From assembly GCA_964629965.1 (NCBI GenBank), contig CAZVRZ010000061.1:1-31465 (forward strand): a stretch of 31,465 bases of DNA. The letters run 5' to 3'. Of this stretch, positions 1,602 through 29,522 are shown piece after piece (within the stretch, counting starts at the first letter, position 1; every line of letters begins with the position of its first letter). Position numbers and translations under genes: made by a program. The notes below the pieces were generated by a model, which saw only the letters and a list, made by a program, of their open reading frames with translations, did no database searches and was not told where the DNA came from. The stretch comes from an uncultured Anaerolineaceae bacterium. Lineage in GTDB: Bacteria; Chloroflexota; Anaerolineae; Anaerolineales; UBA4823.

Positions 1602-3404
1602 GTGGAGTTCCATGCGGTAAATTCCCTGGTAAACGTAGCTATGGGACGCGAGCCGGCTGATTTGGTGATCCGCAACGGTAAATGGGCTTGCGTACAATCT
1701 GGCGAAGTTGTCGCCCAGACCGATATTGCTATCAAGGATGGACGCGTTGCCCTGGTTGCCTCTGATGCGAGGTATACAGTGGGAGATAAAACCCGGGTGA
1801 TCCAGGCCGATGGCCGTTATCTGGTTCCCGGCTTGTTGGATGCCCACATGCATGTTGAGTCGGGTATGCTTACCATCACTGAGTTTGTGAGGGCAGTGAT
1901 CCCCCATGGAACTACGGGCATGTTCATCGATCCGCATGAGATTGCCAATGTGTTCGGTCTACAGGGTGTGCGCCTGATGGTTGATGAGGCTCGCCACCAA
2001 CCGATCCACGTATGGGTGCAGGCTCCTTCGTGCGTGCCGTCTGCGCCCGGATTGGAAACTCCGGGGGCAGAGATCCGTCCCGAGGATGTGGCCGAGGCGT
2101 TGAGTTGGCCGGGGATCATTGGCCTGGGCGAAGTGATGAATTTTCCAGGTGTGGCTGCTAACGAAGCCTGGCTGCACCAGGAACTGGCTGCAACGCGCAA
2201 GGCCGGCAAGGTGATTGGCGGGCATTATGCTTCGCCGGACCTGGGTCGCCCTTTTGCCGGTTATGTGGCCGGCGGTGCCCAGGACGATCACGAAGGCACT
2301 CGCCTCGAAGATGCCGTTGCCCGCATTCGCCAGGGCATGAAGGTGATGATGCGCTTTGGCTCTGCCTGGCATGATGTGGCCGAGCAGGTGCGGGCCGTGA
2401 CAGAATTGGGCCTGGATCCCAGGCATTTCTTATTATGCACCGACGATTCGCATTCGTACACGTTGGTCAAAGAAGGTCATGTCAACCGTGCGCTGCGCGT
2501 GGCGATTGAGAGCGGTGTACCGCCGATGACTGCCCTGCAAATGGCTACTTTGAATACGGCTGAACATTTCCATGTCGACGGAGATATAGGCCAGATTGCC
2601 CCCGGGCGCTTTGCGGATATTCTGATCATGTCTGAATTGCCGGGAGTGGCGGCCAACCCGCCGGAGATGGTCATTGCAAAAGGAACCGTGATTGCCAAAT
2701 CTGGAAGGGTTTTGGTGGATCTGCAGACTTTTACTTATCCAGATTGGGTGCGGCAGTCTGTGCGGTTGGCTCGAGAAGTCAATACCGGCGATTTCCGCCT
2801 GGCAGTGAGCGGCGACCAGGCGCAGGTCTCTGCCAACGTGATCGGGATCATTGAAAACCAGGCTCCCAACCAGCGCCTGAGATATACTTTACCGGTGATG
2901 GAGGGGGAGGTGCAGGCAGATCTGCGCCAGGACATTGCTAAGATCGCTTTGCTTGACAGGCATCGGGGCGCCGGTGTGGTGCAGGTTGGCCTGGTGCACG
3001 GCTTCGGTTTCACGGTTCCATGCGCGGTTGGAACCACCGTGGCTCACGATTGCCACCAGATGGTAATCGTAGGGACGGATGACGGCTGCATGGCGATGGC
3101 TGCCAATGAGCTAAAACGCATTGGGGGCGGCCAGGTTGTGGTGAAAGAAGGCGAAGTGATTGGCAAGATCGAACTTCCCATCGCGGGGTTGATGTCTTCT
3201 GGCCGCGCCGAAGAAGTGGCCCGCCAGGCAGCTACCATCCTGGATGGATTCCGGCTGTGTGGCTGCTCATTGAATAACCCCAACATGCAGCTTAGTTTGA
3301 GTGCTTTACCGGTCATCCCTGACCTGCGCATCACAGACTTGGGTTTGGTGGATGTAAACCGGTTCTCATTGATCCCTGTAATAGAAAGTGAAAACATACC
3401 ATGA
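1602..3404 (+). CDS. Adenine deaminase family amidohydrolase (COG1001, Ade-like)
   Basis: ORF frame is open from 1428, but the likely start is GTG 1602, preceded by AGGAAGG (1586-1592). Translation has ADLVIRNGKW...DIAIKDGRV, then LLDAHMHVESGM (the HxH...E metal site of adenine deaminase) and a long C-terminal domain (~600 aa total), as in Ade. Substrate specificity is not provable from sequence. Confidence 0.7.
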   Translation: MEFHAVNSLVNVAMGREPADLVIRNGKWACVQSGEVVAQTDIAIKDGRVALVASDARYTVGDKTRVIQADGRYLVPGLLDAHMHVESGMLTITEFVRAVIPHGTTGMFIDPHEIANVFGLQGVRLMVDEARHQPIHVWVQAPSCVPSAPGLETPGAEIRPEDVAEALSWPGIIGLGEVMNFPGVAANEAWLHQELAATRKAGKVIGGHYASPDLGRPFAGYVAGGAQDDHEGTRLEDAVARIRQGMKVMMRFGSAWHDVAEQVRAVTELGLDPRHFLLCTDDSHSYTLVKEGHVNRALRVAIESGVPPMTALQMATLNTAEHFHVDGDIGQIAPGRFADILIMSELPGVAANPPEMVIAKGTVIAKSGRVLVDLQTFTYPDWVRQSVRLAREVNTGDFRLAVSGDQAQVSANVIGIIENQAPNQRLRYTLPVMEGEVQADLRQDIAKIALLDRHRGAGVVQVGLVHGFGFTVPCAVGTTVAHDCHQMVIVGTDDGCMAMAANELKRIGGGQVVVKEGEVIGKIELPIAGLMSSGRAEEVARQAATILDGFRLCGCSLNNPNMQLSLSALPVIPDLRITDLGLVDVNRFSLIPVIESENIP

Positions 3405-4138
3405 CAACGGCAAAAACACCCATCGCGTATAAGCTTTATGAAAATTTACGGCGTATGATCGCAGGACTGGAAACAGGCCAACGATTACCATCTGAGCCAG
3501 AACTGGCGCGCAAGTTAGGAGTTTCCCGGGCCACGCTGCGGGAGGCCATGCGCACATTTGAAACGCAAGGCGTGATCTACCGGCGCCAGGGCTCGGGGAC
3601 ATTTGTCTCGCGGCCGCCCCAGGTGATCCAGAGCGGCCTGGAGATGCTGGAAAGCATCGAGAGGTTGGCAGAACGGATTGGATTGCCGGTTTCCTTGGGA
3701 GAGAATATGGTCTCGCCGGACAATGCCAGCGAGGATGATGCTTTGGCTTTGGGCTGCCAGCCTGGCGATAAAGTGCTGCGGGTGTCGCGGGTCATCCTGG
3801 CGGAAGGGCATCCGGCGGCATACTTGATCGATGTTTTGCCCGGAGACGTTTTGGCTCCTGCCGAGTTGGAGAAGGGTTACAAAGGTTCGGTTTTAGATAT
3901 TATCCTGAAGCGCGGCTCGCCGGTATTGAGCTCCTCACGCTGCGAGATCAAAGCAACAACCGCCTCGCCGGACATTGCTCGGGCGATGGGAATCCAGCGC
4001 GGCGATGTGTTGCTGTGCTTTGTGGCATACCTGTACACCATTGAGGGGCGCGTGGTAGATTACTCTTACAGCTATTTCTTGCCGGGACATTTTCGTTTTC
4101 ATGTTGTCCGGCGAATTGAAACCGGCTATTCCGGTTGA
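3401..4138 (+). CDS. GntR family transcriptional regulator, HutC subfamily (wHTH + UTRA effector domain)
   Basis: N-terminal winged-HTH signature (RLPSEPELARKLGVSRATLREAMRTFETQGVIYRRQGSGTFV), ~245 aa with a C-terminal UTRA-like domain. Its ATG overlaps the stop of the upstream gene (ATGA coupling). Confidence 0.8.
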   Translation: MTTAKTPIAYKLYENLRRMIAGLETGQRLPSEPELARKLGVSRATLREAMRTFETQGVIYRRQGSGTFVSRPPQVIQSGLEMLESIERLAERIGLPVSLGENMVSPDNASEDDALALGCQPGDKVLRVSRVILAEGHPAAYLIDVLPGDVLAPAELEKGYKGSVLDIILKRGSPVLSSSRCEIKATTASPDIARAMGIQRGDVLLCFVAYLYTIEGRVVDYSYSYFLPGHFRFHVVRRIETGYSG

Positions 4139-6219: not shown

Positions 6220-7185
6220 ATGTCCGAACAGGCGCGTAAATTTGCGGTAGTGGCTATCGGTGGCAATTCTTTGATCAAGGATAAGCAGCACCAGACGGTG
6301 GAAGATCAATACACGGCTTCTAAAGAAACCACATTTTACATCGCGGATATGATCGAAGCCGGCTGGGATGTTGCTGTCACCCATGGGAATGGCCCACAGG
6401 TGGGTTTTATCCTGCGGCGATCAGAGATTGCTTACCGGGTAGAGGGGATGCACGAAATCCCCCTGGATGTTTGCGGTGCGGACAGCCAGGGAGCGATTGG
6501 TTATGCCTTGCAACAAACCCTGCAGAACGAGCTTTACCGGCGGGGCATCAAGAAAAATGTGGCGACGGTCATAACCCAGGTATTGGTAGATCGAGATGAT
6601 CCGGCATTTAAGAACCCCACCAAACCGATCGGCGGCTTTATGGACCAGGCCGAGGCGCAGCGCCGTGCCAAGGAAATGGATTGGGCGGTCGTTGAAGACG
6701 CCGGCCGCGGCTGGCGGCGTGTGGTGGCCTCTCCGCAGCCCAAAGAAGTCGTTGAGCTGGATACGGTGAAAGCTTTGCTGCAGAGCGGCGTGGTGGCAAT
6801 TGCCGCCGGCGGTGGGGGCATCCCGGTCATTGACGTCGGCGAGGGCGAGTATCGTGGCACGGCTGCGGTGATCGATAAAGACTTTGCCAGTTCCCTGCTG
6901 GCCCAGGCGATCAGAGCCGATCTTTTCCTCATCTCCACTGCGGTGGAGAAGGTGGCGATCCATTTTGGATCGCCACAGCAGCAGTGGTTGGATCGAATCA
7001 CACTGGCGCAAGCTAAGCAGTACCTGGCAGAGGGCATCCATTTTGCCAAGGGTTCCATGGCGCCGAAGATCGAAGCGATCATCTGGTTCTTGGAAGCAGG
7101 TGGAAAGCAAGCCTTGATCACCAATCCCCCCAACATCAGCAAAGCATTGCGCGGCGAGACGGGTACCTGGATCGTTAATGAGTAG
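6220..7185 (+). CDS. arcC: Carbamate kinase
   Basis: AAGGAG RBS. VVAIGGNSL N-terminal motif and THGNGPQVG motif characteristic of carbamate kinase (amino-acid kinase family). 321 aa. Confidence 0.85.
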   Translation: MSEQARKFAVVAIGGNSLIKDKQHQTVEDQYTASKETTFYIADMIEAGWDVAVTHGNGPQVGFILRRSEIAYRVEGMHEIPLDVCGADSQGAIGYALQQTLQNELYRRGIKKNVATVITQVLVDRDDPAFKNPTKPIGGFMDQAEAQRRAKEMDWAVVEDAGRGWRRVVASPQPKEVVELDTVKALLQSGVVAIAAGGGGIPVIDVGEGEYRGTAAVIDKDFASSLLAQAIRADLFLISTAVEKVAIHFGSPQQQWLDRITLAQAKQYLAEGIHFAKGSMAPKIEAIIWFLEAGGKQALITNPPNISKALRGETGTWIVNE

Positions 7186-7242
7186 AGGTAATTATTTTAT
7201 AAGTAGTATAGACAATCTCGTCCGAAGGGTGTATCCTTGTAC

Positions 7243-7373
7243 ATTGTGCATGGTAGATGCTGTGTGATTGGCCGAAAATTATTTAACTAAATAGATGCGT
7301 AAAATCGGCCAATCACTTGAGCAAACCGCTATGTTGGCTGTAAAGTTGTTCAAAAACATTTAGCGATTTGCTA
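7243..7373. repeat. Copy 1 of a ~125-bp structured repeat: two tandem hairpins (GTGATTGGCCGA-29nt-TCGGCCAATCAC; AGCAAACCGCTA-30nt-TAGCGATTTGCT)
   Basis: ~92% identical to 24016-24143. The perfect 12-bp inverted repeat was read directly. Located in the 340-bp intergenic region upstream of the BMP/ABC transporter operon. Confidence 0.8.
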
Positions 7374-7524
7374 ACATGTATGGAGCGCTATAGAGAGGCT
7401 CTGCCCCGGAGGCGTTTTCACGAAAGGAGGTGCCCTCAACCTGTTTGCCGTTTTGCATTGATGGAGAATGCTAGAAATGTCTGGTTTGAATCGACCAATT
7501 TAGATCATCTTGATGGAGGAGTAA

Positions 7525-8715
7525 ATGCGTACCAAAATATTGACAGTGCTGCTAATTCTGGCGATTGCCCTTTCGGGCTGCAGCCAAAAGCCCGAGGAAG
7601 TGGGCGGTTTTCAGATCCCGAATGTGGAAAAAGGCAAATTCAACGTTGGCATGGTTCTGATCGGCCCCCATGATGATGGCGGTTGGTCTCAGTCCCACTA
7701 TGAGGGACTCGAGTATGTTGCCAAGAATGTGCCGAACGTACATGTGGCGTATATCGAGAATGTGCCCGAAGGCGCTGACTCGGAGCAGGTTTTCCGCGCT
7801 CTCTCGCGGAAAGGTTTTGACCTGATCATTGGTACATCTTTCGGTTTTGGCGACCCGATGGAAATCGTGGCTGGTGAATTCCCGAAGAGCATGTATGTCC
7901 ACATTAGCGGCATCAAGTCCAATTCAACCAACTTCGGCAACCTGTTCGGCGCCATGGAAGTGATGAAGTATGCGGCTGGGATGCTGGCCGGGGCGCGCGC
8001 TAAGATGGATGGCAACCCCAAGCTGGGTTATATGGCGACCTTCCCCATTCCGGAGGAACTGCGCCTTGGGAATGCCATTGCCCTGGGTATGAAGAAGACC
8101 TGCCCGGAGTGCACCATGGATGTGCGCTGGATCAGTACCTGGCATGATCCCGTGATTGAAAAAGAAGCGGCTGCTTCCCTCTTCGATGCCGGTGCTCAGG
8201 TGGTTTTCACCGGCGCAGATACCCCGGCGGTTGCCGATGTGGCTCAGGAAAAGGGTAAATGGGGCGTGACCTATGACTGGTATGGTTCCTGCAAGGTGGA
8301 TCGCTGCTTGACCGTTCCTTATTGGAATTGGGGCCCGATCTATGCCAAGATCACCGAACAGGTGGCTGCGGGCACCTATAAGCCAGGTTGGGATTATTTC
8401 GATGCGGAAACAGGCGCACTGGGCCTCTACGGCTTTATGGAAGGCCAGTCGCTGCCCATGGGCGTCAAGGAATTACCCGCTGAGGTTGTGGATGAAGTGC
8501 GCTCTATCATTGACAAATCTCTCAAGGGCCAATTCACGCGCTTCGATGTGTTTACCGGCCCGATCATGGATAATCAGGGCAATACCATTGTGCCTGCTGG
8601 CTCGAAGATGGACCAGGCTGACCTGGATCAATTCCCGGAATATGGTTTGGGTTGTAAGTACTGCATGAAGTGGTGGGCAGAAGGCATTACTGCTGAACTG
8701 CCAAAGACCGATTAG
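7525..8715 (+). CDS. BMP family (PnrA/Med-like) ABC transporter substrate-binding lipoprotein, likely a purine-nucleoside-binding protein
   Basis: Lipoprotein signal MRTKILTVLLILAIALSGCSQ (lipobox LSGC). GGAGGAG RBS. ~396 aa periplasmic binding-protein fold with BMP-family hallmarks. Followed by a duplicated-ATPase ABC protein and two permeases, the classic nucleoside-uptake arrangement. Confidence 0.75.
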   Translation: MRTKILTVLLILAIALSGCSQKPEEVGGFQIPNVEKGKFNVGMVLIGPHDDGGWSQSHYEGLEYVAKNVPNVHVAYIENVPEGADSEQVFRALSRKGFDLIIGTSFGFGDPMEIVAGEFPKSMYVHISGIKSNSTNFGNLFGAMEVMKYAAGMLAGARAKMDGNPKLGYMATFPIPEELRLGNAIALGMKKTCPECTMDVRWISTWHDPVIEKEAAASLFDAGAQVVFTGADTPAVADVAQEKGKWGVTYDWYGSCKVDRCLTVPYWNWGPIYAKITEQVAAGTYKPGWDYFDAETGALGLYGFMEGQSLPMGVKELPAEVVDEVRSIIDKSLKGQFTRFDVFTGPIMDNQGNTIVPAGSKMDQADLDQFPEYGLGCKYCMKWWAEGITAELPKTD

Positions 8716-16254: not shown

Positions 16255-16965
16255 TTGAGGAAAAATTTGGTTCCCACCGCCTCGTTGGGGAGTGCGGCCA
16301 TCTTCCTGGTTGGATTGAGCCTGGCTTGTGGCATTGTCCCTCAGGCGCTTTTGCCTAATTCCACACCGACCATCACAACCGTATTCACCGGTACTGCCTT
16401 GCCCACCTCGACTGCCATGATCATGGCTGCGGTCATGCCCACCTTGACTCTCACCCAGGCGAACACGCCTTCGCCAACATTTACCGACACGACCGCGCCG
16501 CCCACGGCAACTGCTACGAAGACTGCCACCGTGGCGCTGACGCCTCCTCCCGAAGGTTTCCTGGCGTGGGATATCTATCCGGACAACGGCGCCCTGACCG
16601 AACAATTGTTTGCGCATACGCAGCTTGCCCTGGCGATGGGTCTGATGCCTTATGTTGAATTTACTGCCACCTGGTGCCCGGCCTGCCAGGCTATTGAAAG
16701 AAGCCTGTCTGATGGGAATGAATTGATGGTGGATGCTTGCCAGGGCACTTATATCATCCGGGTGGATGTGGATGCCTGGGATTGGAACGAGCGGGAAAAG
16801 GCTGGCTTCGAAGTGGAATTTATTCCCATCTTCTACTTGCTCGATCGAGAAGGCCAGCCAACCGGAAACACGATCGGGGGCGACGCCTGGGGTGACAATA
16901 TCCCTGCGAACATGGCCCCACCTTTAAAGGAATTCTTTCAGGCCCATGGTGTGATTGGCCGATAG
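16255..16965 (+). CDS. Secreted or membrane-anchored thioredoxin-fold protein (WCPAC active site) with a Thr/Pro-rich linker
   Basis: N-terminal signal/anchor, a ~70-aa low-complexity T/P/A-rich region, then FTATWCPACQAIE, a CxxC thioredoxin-like motif. TTG start with AGAGGGA upstream. Confidence 0.6.
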   Translation: MRKNLVPTASLGSAAIFLVGLSLACGIVPQALLPNSTPTITTVFTGTALPTSTAMIMAAVMPTLTLTQANTPSPTFTDTTAPPTATATKTATVALTPPPEGFLAWDIYPDNGALTEQLFAHTQLALAMGLMPYVEFTATWCPACQAIERSLSDGNELMVDACQGTYIIRVDVDAWDWNEREKAGFEVEFIPIFYLLDREGQPTGNTIGGDAWGDNIPANMAPPLKEFFQAHGVIGR

Positions 16966-16987
16966 TCATTAAACGAAAAGGAGATCT

Positions 16988-18451
16988 ATGAACATTGATT
17001 TGACCGTTAATTCAAGTCGCCGCTTGCGATCGATCCAACGTGCTCGCGAGCGAGGGATTGTCATCCCTACTTTTGCCCAGATGAAGAACCCGGCATTGAT
17101 CCCGGCGCGGGTGAAAGAAGCGCTCTCCAAGATTGGGCTGTGGGATGTTCACCCGCTGAACCTTTTCCGCATTACCTGGCACAACCAGCCGCAGGAGATG
17201 GGCGGGGGGTTTGGCGGCTTGAACTACCTGGAATTGCCTTCCAGCCTGACGGGGACGCCTGCCCGCATCCTGGTTTTGGTCGGTAAATGGTTCCCCACCG
17301 GTGCTCACAAAGTTGGCGCTGCCTTTGGCTGCCTGGTGCCGCGCCTGGTGACGGGGCAGTTCGATCCCACCACGCAGAAAGCCGTCTGGCCTTCCACCGG
17401 CAATTACTGCCGGGGTGGCGCGTACGATTCGGCGCTGCTGGCATGCGAATCCATTGCGATCCTGCCCGAGGGCATGAGCCGCGAACGCTTTGAGTGGTTA
17501 TCAAAGATTTCGGGCGAAGTGATCGCCACGCCGGGCAGCGAGTCGAATGTCAAAGAGATCTTCGATAAGTGTTGGGAACTGCGCCAGTCGGGCCAGGATC
17601 TGATGATCTTCAACCAGTTCGAAGAGTTTGGCAATTACCTGTGGCATTACGAAGTCACCGGGCACGCCATGGAAGAGTTGTTGGCCCAGGTGATGGGGCC
17701 GAAGGATGCTTACCGCGGTCTGGCTTCGGCGACCGGGTCGGCCGGTACGATTGCCAGCGGCGACTATATGAAGCAGTTGTTCCCTGGTTCTAAGATTGCT
17801 GCCAGCGAGGCCGTGCAATGCCCTACCTTGTTGGAGAATGGTTTTGGCGCCCACCGTATCGAGGGGATTGGCGATAAGCACGTTCCCTGGATCCACAACG
17901 TCAAGAACACCGATATGATCGTCGCGATCGACGATGAAGCCGTAGTGAGCCTGGCCCGCCTGTTCAATGAGCCAGTTGGGCATGCATACCTGGCAGGCCA
18001 GGGTGTTGCGCCGGAATTGGTCGCTCAGTTGGATCTGTTGGGCTTCTCGGGCATCTCCAATGTTTTGACTGCTATCAAGATGGCGAAGTATTACGAGTGG
18101 AACGAGCATGACATTGTTCTGACGGTGCTGACCGATTCGATGGAGCTGTATGGCAGTCGCTTGCTGGAAATGCGCCAGGAATATGGCCAGTATACAGAAC
18201 GCGACGCGGCGGCCCACTTTGCCCGTTTCCTTCAGGGGCAGTCAACGGACCACTTGTTAGAGTTATCGTATGCTGATCGCCGGCGAGTGCATAACCTGAA
18301 GTATTTCACCTGGGTTGAGCAGCAAGGCAAAACATACCAGGAGATCCAGGCGCAGTGGTACGAGCCTGATTATTGGGAGAGCGTGCAGCGAATGACTCCT
18401 GAAATTGATGCATTGATCGAAGTGTTCAATGCTGATGTTGGCCTGGGCTGA
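16988..18451 (+). CDS. PLP-dependent enzyme, fold type II (tryptophan-synthase-beta/cysteine-synthase superfamily), unusually long, function unknown
   Basis: AAGGAG RBS. PTGAHKVGAAFG (PLP-lysine region, analogous to PTGSFKDRGA), STGNYCRGGAYDSA (analogous to SSGNHG), a glycine-rich loop GSAGTIASG, and a ~150-aa extra C-terminal region. Confidence 0.55.
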   Translation: MNIDLTVNSSRRLRSIQRARERGIVIPTFAQMKNPALIPARVKEALSKIGLWDVHPLNLFRITWHNQPQEMGGGFGGLNYLELPSSLTGTPARILVLVGKWFPTGAHKVGAAFGCLVPRLVTGQFDPTTQKAVWPSTGNYCRGGAYDSALLACESIAILPEGMSRERFEWLSKISGEVIATPGSESNVKEIFDKCWELRQSGQDLMIFNQFEEFGNYLWHYEVTGHAMEELLAQVMGPKDAYRGLASATGSAGTIASGDYMKQLFPGSKIAASEAVQCPTLLENGFGAHRIEGIGDKHVPWIHNVKNTDMIVAIDDEAVVSLARLFNEPVGHAYLAGQGVAPELVAQLDLLGFSGISNVLTAIKMAKYYEWNEHDIVLTVLTDSMELYGSRLLEMRQEYGQYTERDAAAHFARFLQGQSTDHLLELSYADRRRVHNLKYFTWVEQQGKTYQEIQAQWYEPDYWESVQRMTPEIDALIEVFNADVGLG

Positions 18452-23885: not shown

Positions 23886-24015
23886 AGTATCCTCCTGTGG
23901 TCAGTAACTCTACTGATTATACATCAAGCGATTGGTTTGCCCGAATCAGAAAAATTCCATAGATAATATGGGGGATGCAAAGCGCCGATAGATTTAGAAT
24001 AGATATCAATCACCA

Positions 24016-24143
24016 TGGTGCATGGTGCTATGTGATTGGCCGAAAGTTATTTAACTAAATGGATGCGTAAAATCGGCCAATCACTTGAGCAAACTGCTAT
24101 GTTGGCTGTAAAGTTGTTCAAAATACTTTTAGCGGTTTGCTTA
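24016..24143. repeat. Copy 2 of the ~125-bp twin-hairpin repeat (GTGATTGGCCGA-29nt-TCGGCCAATCAC; AGCAAACTGCTA-30nt-TAGCGGTTTGCT)
   Basis: ~92% identical to 7243-7373. In the divergent intergenic region between the CrtI-like gene and the flotillin gene, ending ~30 nt before the flotillin RBS. Confidence 0.8.
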
Positions 24144-24175
24144 GAAAGATCAATCGCATCACAAAGGAGTTTTGT

Positions 24176-27963: not shown

Positions 27964-27996
27964 GTACAGAGCAGCGTGACGAATAGAGCGTTGTGA
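27964..27996 (+). repeat. ~1.4 copies of the 17-bp direct-repeat motif (…ACAGAGC AGCGTGACGAATAGAGC GTTGTGACC), related to the tandem array at 29467-29522
   Basis: 16 of 17 nt identical to unit 3 of the downstream array. Positioned between the candidate -10 and the RBS of the 28030 gene. Confidence 0.6.
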
Positions 27997-29466: not shown

Positions 29467-29522
29467 ATCGTGACGAACAGAGCATCGTGGCGATCAGAGC
29501 ATCGTGACGAATAGAGCATCGG
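29467..29522 (+). repeat. Tandem direct repeats, 3.3 x 17 bp (ATCGTGACGAACAGAGC / ATCGTGGCGATCAGAGC / ATCGTGACGAATAGAGC / ATCGG), upstream of acnA
   Basis: Read directly: perfect 17-bp periodicity with 2-3 substitutions per unit. Confidence 0.85.

Follow-up and report, generated by a model that had tools for sequence, protein, structure and literature searches.

The twin-hairpin element at positions 7248-7375 of the window (the whole stretch of 31,465 nt of contig CAZVRZ010000061.1, from an uncultured Anaerolineaceae bacterium, that was analysed here) is, with a probability of roughly 65%, a copy of a ~115-140-bp non-coding, non-autonomous MITE-like transposon that occurs, as far as seen, in Anaerolineales and related Chloroflexota. 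This reading fits the small size of the element, its lack of conserved coding capacity, its inverted-repeat ends and the 3-bp direct repeats enriched at its flanks, combined with a dispersed multi-copy distribution, genome-specific subfamilies, absence from orthologous loci, heterogeneous neighbouring genes and the existence of decay products. The initial annotation, prepared from the letters of the window alone, had hesitated between a structured cis-regulatory RNA or DNA site and a small non-autonomous repeat inserting near promoters; it is the latter option that the dispersal of the family, the terminal inverted repeats (TIRs) and the enriched 3-bp repeats support.

The ~125-bp element and its two copies, reported at the outset, are real. 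Pairwise alignment traces their homology over roughly 7243-7375 and 24013-24145, at an identity of ~96% (96% over the 98 ungapped nt of 7258-7355 and 24026-24123), and a covariance model built from ten copies of the family matches copy 1 at 7248-7375 with 109.1 bits (E = 9e-24) and copy 2 at 24016-24145 with 119.3 bits, both on the forward strand. Within copy 1, the family core covers 7263-7373, and the remaining ~15 nt on the left (7248-7262) form an extension that is found in both window copies and is absent from other family members. Still further left, TTGTACATTGT (7236-7246) is common to the window and to the orthologous spacer of another genome (locus L073) and thus belongs to the flank, outside the element. 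Each copy carries, as originally described, two 12-bp stems, perfect or with one mismatch, that enclose A/T-rich loops of ~29 nt. Hairpin 1 extends over 7264-7316 in copy 1 (arms 7264-7275 and 7305-7316, 29-nt loop) and over 24032-24084 in copy 2 (arms 24032-24043 and 24073-24084), again on the forward strand, and its arms, GTGATTGGCCGA and TCGGCCAATCAC, pair perfectly in both window copies. Hairpin 2, which occupies 7320-7372 in copy 1 (arms 7320-7331 and 7361-7372) and 24088-24141 in copy 2 (arms 24088-24099 and 24130-24141) of the same strand, is built from the arms AGCAAACCGCTA and TAGCGATTTGCT around a loop of 29-30 nt, with a single mismatch in each window copy, C.A in the former and a T.G pair in the latter. 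For RNA and DNA alike, the structure of minimum free energy is the twin-hairpin fold, which is far more stable than dinucleotide shuffles; the RNA fold reaches -41.6 kcal/mol with z = -3.8 on the forward strand and z = -6.6 on the reverse strand, and the DNA fold z = -4.3 and -5.9.

A third, truncated copy, overlooked at first, lies at 16951-16982 of the forward strand, so that two full copies and one partial copy are dispersed over 31 kb of a single genome. Copy 3 consists of the exact left arm and the first ~20 bases of the loop (GTGATTGGCCGATAGTCATTAAACGAAAAGGA), has neither the partner 3' arm nor hairpin 2, and sits 5 nt 5' of the start codon of the gene at 16988. A thioredoxin-like ORF (16255-16965) runs into this copy and derives its last ~5 codons (GTG ATT GGC CGA plus TAG) from the element, its TAG stop being an A-to-T change within the conserved CCGAAAGT motif; the next gene begins 22 nt downstream. 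The window also contains a 17-nt tandem repeat, ATCGTGACGAACAGAGC, present in 3.2 copies at 29467-29521 directly after a gene for a pterin-binding enzyme, with a related single copy at 27967-27989, 1.5 kb upstream of the tandem array.

How far does the family reach beyond these three copies? A scan of one genome per species with a pattern for hairpin 1 that left the loop free returned 31 loci, many of them chance palindromes, and a locus was regarded as a true relative when it had the same loop start together with a second hairpin. True relatives were thereby found in the Chloroflexota metagenome-assembled genome (MAG) CAVPMW01, in one Anaerolineae MAG, in one Anaerolineales MAG (two loci) and on one contig labelled as alphaproteobacterial; CAVPMW01 contains at least six copies on five contigs. 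A similar pattern scan of metagenome contigs yielded 34 further loci. With the covariance model, ~30 distinct full copies score 85-126 bits, and ~11 copies with one hairpin only are picked up as well. All family members come from Chloroflexota MAGs and from sediment or wetland metagenomes, a sampling that is biased in that both search patterns fixed the arms of hairpin 1. The contig with the deviating label (CAWHYZ010000004.1, locus L003, 'uncultured Alphaproteobacteria') bears an element that closely resembles, in sequence, the copies of the Chloroflexota MAG. Those homologues of the GH1 beta-glucosidase on this contig that carry a taxon name are from Anaerolineae or Chloroflexota, so the taxon label is probably wrong. 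Throughout the family, the element measures 115-140 bp, well within the limit of about 600 bp for MITEs, and has no conserved coding capacity. Several of the Chloroflexota loci contain, in addition, long perfect palindromes between genes, with 20-24-bp stems and 4-6-nt loops (L003, 5692-5745; L019, 2806-2860 and 3304-3357; L070, 18818-18872; L073, 7434-7486), which may be terminators or another class of repeat.

The breadth of this distribution bears directly on the simplest explanation of the window itself, namely that a local duplication, limited to this contig, produced two copies that are 96% identical and only 17 kb apart. Rather than just two copies existing anywhere, there are ~40 relatives at unrelated loci of other Chloroflexota genomes and of metagenomes, which refutes the duplication scenario and leaves it with practically no probability. 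Rfam gave zero matches at gathering thresholds for the window and six related loci, and chance-level matches only at E <= 10 for the region 7150-7540. A literature search by keywords and by sequence string found no description of the element.

The architecture of the ends becomes apparent once the family is aligned. The left end has the consensus (T/G)GTGATTGGCCGAAAGTAAyTTwAyAAA, which comprises the outer arm of hairpin 1 and the first ~18 bases of its loop, and the right end, read as its reverse complement, has the consensus GCAAwyCGyCGAAAGwAwyTTwAyAAA, comprising the last ~18 loop bases and the outer arm of hairpin 2. When the left end is compared with the reverse-complemented right end, 15-28 of 37 positions are identical per copy (25 copies), with CGAAAGTA..TT.A.AAA as the core common to both. 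The element has imperfect TIRs of ~30 bp, and the two-fold pseudo-symmetry that they impose is visible in the family alignment and not discernible from two copies alone. Because the outermost 12 nt of each end are repeated in inverted form ~29 nt further inward, a single strand folds into two adjacent 12-bp hairpins; these are joined by a short linker (CTTAA, CTTGA or CTCGA), and the inner parts of the loops are variable.

Departures from the twin arrangement occur in both directions. In two loci of the same MAG, L011 and L015, an extra small palindrome, CTGAAGTTAG...CTAACTTCAG, is found between hairpins 1 and 2 (775-800 in L015; about 560-585 on the reverse strand of L011), and a second hairpin-2 unit is present in L033, L037 and L053. 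The resulting triple array, at 462-633 in L053, is composed of hairpin 1, a hairpin 2 of AACC type and a hairpin 2 of AATT type, and is flanked as a whole by ATT..ATT, suggesting that a hairpin unit was inserted or recombined within a twin element. At the other extreme, several of the one-hairpin copies keep the first bases of hairpin 2 and are accordingly seen as deletion remnants; that solo hairpins are independent insertions was considered and ruled out by this retained start and by the absence of flanking repeats.

Evidence for insertion as a discrete unit comes from the bases immediately outside the element. With TGATTGG and TTGC as left and right anchors, the 3-mer ending two bases before the former was compared with the 3-mer starting one base after the latter, and in this single fixed register a perfect 3-bp direct repeat was present at 8 of 27 independent loci (ATT, TAT, AAT, ATT, AAT, ATA, ATA and ACT). 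Permutation of the right flanks among loci gives an expectation of 0.93 matches, and none of 20,000 trials reached eight; with one base of slack, the count rises to 15 of 27 loci against 5.2 expected, a value attained in none of 5,000 permutations. An inverted-repeat control showed no enrichment, the flanking repeats being direct only, and closely related copies bear different flanking triplets. Such an enrichment of 3-bp, A/T-rich flanking repeats is the pattern that a short target-site duplication leaves. Neither window copy is itself cleanly flanked by a duplication, which is likewise absent or degraded in the remaining loci of the 27, and the candidate repeats ACAT(T)GT at copy 1 and ATCAATC at copy 2 imply inconsistent element ends, for which reason they are taken as chance. 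The original argument that the element has neither TIRs nor a target-site duplication, and so is no classical MITE, hence holds for the missing duplication at the window copies and gives way at the level of the family, where a ~30-bp TIR and enriched 3-bp repeats are both seen.

The hairpins raise a different question. Pairing in hairpin 2 amounts to 90.7% over 26 distinct full copies, and 5 of its 12 pairs vary on both sides (for example, U-A/A-U in 13:12 copies, U-A/C-G in 14:11 and C-G/U-A in 20:5); none of 500 column shuffles reached the observed covariation score, and slid controls collapsed. For the most part, these changes set two or three subfamilies apart and thus represent few independent events, and G.T and A.C mismatches are equally rare, so that neither RNA strand is favoured. 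For hairpin 1, the ten scored pairs are invariant, which is uninformative given that the arms were fixed by both search patterns; the two outer pairs that the patterns left free are poorly kept.

Could the hairpins then be the mobile entity in their own right? A REP/BIME-like or IS200/IS605-derived palindromic element would move as single-stranded DNA hairpins under the action of a tyrosine HUH transposase of the RAYT or TnpA-Y1 type, and several of the observations just described sit well with such a route: the stable hairpins are conserved better than any other feature and form as readily on one strand as on the other, the pairing of hairpin 2 survives changes on both sides, the balance of G.T and A.C counts between the two RNA strands fits a DNA-level constraint, and the mosaic arrays (solo, twin and triple, with the extra palindrome of L011 and L015) recall BIMEs. 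Like the present element, REPs, BIMEs and REPINs are extragenic palindromes that occur singly, in inverted pairs and in mosaic arrays, the pair seeming to be the unit that spreads. They make no target duplication, however, whereas the element has long conserved loops, TIRs and, at the level of the family, enriched 3-bp flanking repeats; the REP and IS200/IS605 families show neither target-site duplication nor terminal inverted repeats. REPs measure 20-40 nt, have short loops and bear a GTAG or CGTC tag (PMC3733652), whereas the hairpins of the element are 53 nt long, have 29-nt loops and start with GTGA(TTGG). Nor do the bases to the left of the element conform to the fixed 5' tetra- or pentanucleotide that, together with subterminal hairpins, defines IS200/IS605-derived palindromic elements (PATEs), as they vary among copies. 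No HUH gene was seen at any fetched locus, and no RAYT gene in the fetched loci. A RAYT or IS200/IS605 mechanism is consequently less likely than a MITE, as those systems lack inverted-repeat ends and duplications and REPs are much shorter; taken by itself, it appears quite improbable.

Searches for a mobile partner, beside the copies and elsewhere, were negative. No transposase was seen beside any copy, including the one-hairpin copies, which might have been insertion-sequence ends and which adjoin genes for UvrC, an ABC ATPase, MttB, a nucleotidyltransferase and similar proteins. Isolated inverted-repeat ends in 550 kb of fetched loci included none that was convincing, and neither viral contigs (three patterns) nor plasmids and phages (blastn) gave a match.

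The placement of the copies among host genes is informative in its own way. The flanking genes are functionally unrelated and stand in mixed orientation relative to the element; their products include enolase, a short-chain dehydrogenase (SDR), a methylthioadenosine-type (MTAP-type) phosphorylase, MarR, arginase, PfkB, an L,D-transpeptidase and SCP2, as well as a periplasmic binding protein, a methyltransferase, UvrC, methylmalonyl-CoA mutase, ribosomal protein L25, MttB and a beta-lactamase-fold protein. By crude ORF calls, ~10 copies in co-directional spacers are sense and three antisense to the downstream gene, and, by the same calls, eight copies lie within divergent gene pairs and one within a convergent pair. 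At nearly all loci, the element adjoins the 5' end of at least one gene, and many copies end 11-45 nt from a start codon. The family thus shows a preference for, or a tolerance in, promoter-side spacers, without a fixed orientation.

Both full window copies conform to this pattern. Copy 1 resides, as first reported, in an untranslated gap, here 339 nt long between the end of an amino-acid-kinase gene at 7185 and the start at 7525 of Bmp, the substrate-binding gene in the operon of an ABC transporter. Copy 2 is situated between a divergent amine-oxidase gene (reverse strand, start 23885) and a gene on the forward strand (start 24176) whose product, previously called a flotillin, is an SPFH/Band-7 protein by Pfam assignment. 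A consensus promoter scan found a single site in the Bmp spacer, TAGACA-17-TATCCT, at 7209-7237 of the forward strand, outside the element and just upstream of copy 1, and the same site is present in an orthologous locus without the element; in this light, copy 1 appears to have inserted on the downstream side of a conserved box that resembles a promoter, which places it in what is probably the 5' leader of the Bmp operon. Coinciding with this site, AGTATAGACAA-N12-GGTGTATCCTT (7203-7238) is common to the amino-acid-kinase/Bmp spacers of the window and of L073, and its GT.TA.AC-like core is what we take to be a candidate operator for the GntR/UTRA regulator encoded at 3401-4138. Downstream of copy 1, a conserved AAGGAGGTG at 7420-7428, ~100 nt upstream of the Bmp start codon, recurs in the orthologous spacers of L070 and L073; it may serve a short upstream ORF as ribosome-binding site, or it may belong to the leader of the Bmp operon itself.

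These orthologous loci also allow the window to be compared with genomes in which the same genes are found. In three related genomes with ~80% protein identity, the gene order around the Bmp operon is conserved (amidohydrolases, GntR/UTRA, carbamoyltransferases, amino-acid kinase, Bmp, ABC, permeases, PALP, GT2, PALP and SNF2), yet their amino-acid-kinase/Bmp spacers measure 116, 189 and 227 nt versus 339 nt in the window, and the covariance model found no copy over 152 kb of these three loci. The closest relatives of the SPFH gene (78-85% identity) have other gene neighbourhoods with ordinary short upstream regions, and here, too, the model found no copy, over 85 kb of related loci; together, the orthologous Bmp and SPFH loci amount to 238 kb without a copy. 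As the nearest relatives are only ~80% identical at the protein level, the insertion point is not readable to the base, and no base-exact empty site was recovered among the related Bmp and SPFH loci.

It is on these observations that a regulatory interpretation has to be judged. It holds that the element is a functional cis-regulatory module, be it a structured RNA of the 5' leader or a DNA site bound by a protein, that a repeat has spread or given rise to by exaptation and that co-regulates many genes of unrelated function, whether by way of mRNA stability, for example, or by way of a global factor that binds the conserved CGAAAGTAAyTTwAyAAA motif of the loop. Its attraction is evident from the location of nearly all copies beside a gene 5' end, often 11-45 nt from the start codon, from the eight divergent settings against a single convergent one, from the conservation of the loop motif and stems across subfamilies, from the compensatory changes in hairpin 2 and from the fact that both full window copies are sense and in probable leaders; a 5'-leader position, stable stems and some compensatory changes are, moreover, what the element shares with the leader RNAs and riboswitches of Rfam. 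Unlike those, it is not conserved at orthologous genes and keeps to no consistent gene class or orientation. Absence from the orthologous loci, adjoining genes that have no common function, the occurrence of both orientations, the lack of conserved promoter hexamers at proper spacing within the conserved parts and the lack of an Rfam family all count against the module, and insertion of a 120-bp element into a short spacer would by itself bring it close to a start codon. We consider a family-wide regulatory module unlikely, and the structured cis-regulatory RNA envisaged by the initial annotation is left unsupported, there being no Rfam match, no element at orthologous loci, unrelated neighbours, mixed orientation and, in relatives, shifts in the frame of the short ORF discussed below; individual copies may nonetheless have a secondary regulatory role.

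More specific variants of a cellular function were also considered. A regulon or transcription-factor site is ruled out by the heterogeneous neighbours and the absence at orthologous loci. A promoter carried by the element was rejected, in that the conserved loop contains TTTACA/TTAACA, which resembles a -35 hexamer, without a -10 hexamer at usable spacing, and no conserved hexamer pair points outward; the promoter consensus scan, for its part, detected no site inside either full window copy. Finally, the 22-codon ORF (MRKIGQSLEQTAMLAVKLFKNI) that had been noticed to start in loop 1 without a Shine-Dalgarno sequence is indeed present in copy 1, and likewise has no ribosome-binding site in the present analysis. 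If it were the functional part, the locus would encode a small protein or a type I toxin. In copy 2, however, a 1-nt indel alters the C-terminus of the ORF and removes its stop codon, and in relatives such as L003 the ATG of loop 1 reads the shared TCGGCCAATCAC arm in another frame. With the reading frame not conserved across family members and no ribosome-binding site in front of it, a coding function is contradicted and must be deemed exceedingly improbable.

Returning to the MITE-like transposon as the preferred reading, its movement can be pictured as follows. A DDE-type transposase encoded elsewhere in the genome would bind the conserved ends and move the hairpin pair as a unit, and insertion would take place into A/T-rich intergenic DNA with duplication of 3 bp (sometimes 2). 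Old copies would then decay to single hairpins or single ends, of which copy 3 is a likely example. In the Bmp nucleoside-transporter operon, copy 1 would have landed downstream of the conserved promoter-like box and upstream of the ribosome-binding site; copy 2 would have entered the spacer of the divergent gene pair, 28 nt upstream of the start codon of the SPFH gene. Given these leader positions, both are probably transcribed as passive 5'-leader hairpins, and any effect on expression, be it on mRNA stability or on translation, would be a side effect.

Which autonomous element could supply such a transposase? PIF/Harbinger-ISL2EU DNA transposons are reported to generate 0-, 2- or 3-bp duplications, and the bacterial IS5 family falls into one transposase phylogeny with the PIF/Harbinger-ISL2EU superfamily (PMC12730594). 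As a candidate parent, IS5/PIF-Harbinger-ISL2EU resembles the element, whose putative duplications are of 3 bp and A/T-rich, and duplication length is the one feature that links the two; with no parent element found, it is only a lead.

Among established bacterial families, MITE-type elements include Correia/NEMIS of Neisseria, RUP, ERIC and Nezha. With these elements, the present family shares a length of 100-150 bp, non-coding sequence, TIRs, a very short A/T-rich duplication (putative in the present family), dozens of dispersed intergenic copies that are often near gene starts and, probably here too, co-transcribed, stable RNA hairpins and an apparently patchy presence among related genomes. 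It differs in its unrelated sequence, in its phylum and in a putative duplication that is mostly of 3 bp instead of TA. Most conspicuously, each of its ends folds on itself, giving two 12-bp hairpins with ~29-nt loops, whereas Correia/NEMIS-type elements form one long end-to-end hairpin. A further difference is that no parent insertion sequence was found for the element.

What, then, is the significance of the self-folding ends? An ordinary cut-and-paste transposase has no need of complements internal to the ends, and the simple MITE model leaves them unexplained. The maintenance of the complements of hairpin 2 by compensatory changes hints that single-stranded DNA or RNA is subject to a further constraint; the internal complements may reflect this constraint or may have been inherited from the ends of the parent element. 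Two more far-reaching possibilities, a hairpin-dependent route that would be novel for elements with inverted repeats and 3-bp duplications, or a promoter-proximal, factor-bound module recruited by the host to tune dozens of unrelated Anaerolineales genes, are best seen as long shots.

In terms of its kind, the element adds one more MITE-like family to those known, and its unusual trait, the self-folding ends, would be of interest only if the hairpins proved to be needed for movement or regulation. The analysis provides a model, in sequence and structure, of a family of repeats in the Anaerolineales, which are widespread, poorly studied and known mostly from metagenomes. Repeats of this type break assemblies and may pass for riboswitches or small-RNA genes when intergenic regions are screened, and they can alter the expression of adjoining genes, which in this genome are a nucleoside-transporter operon and a flotillin-type gene.
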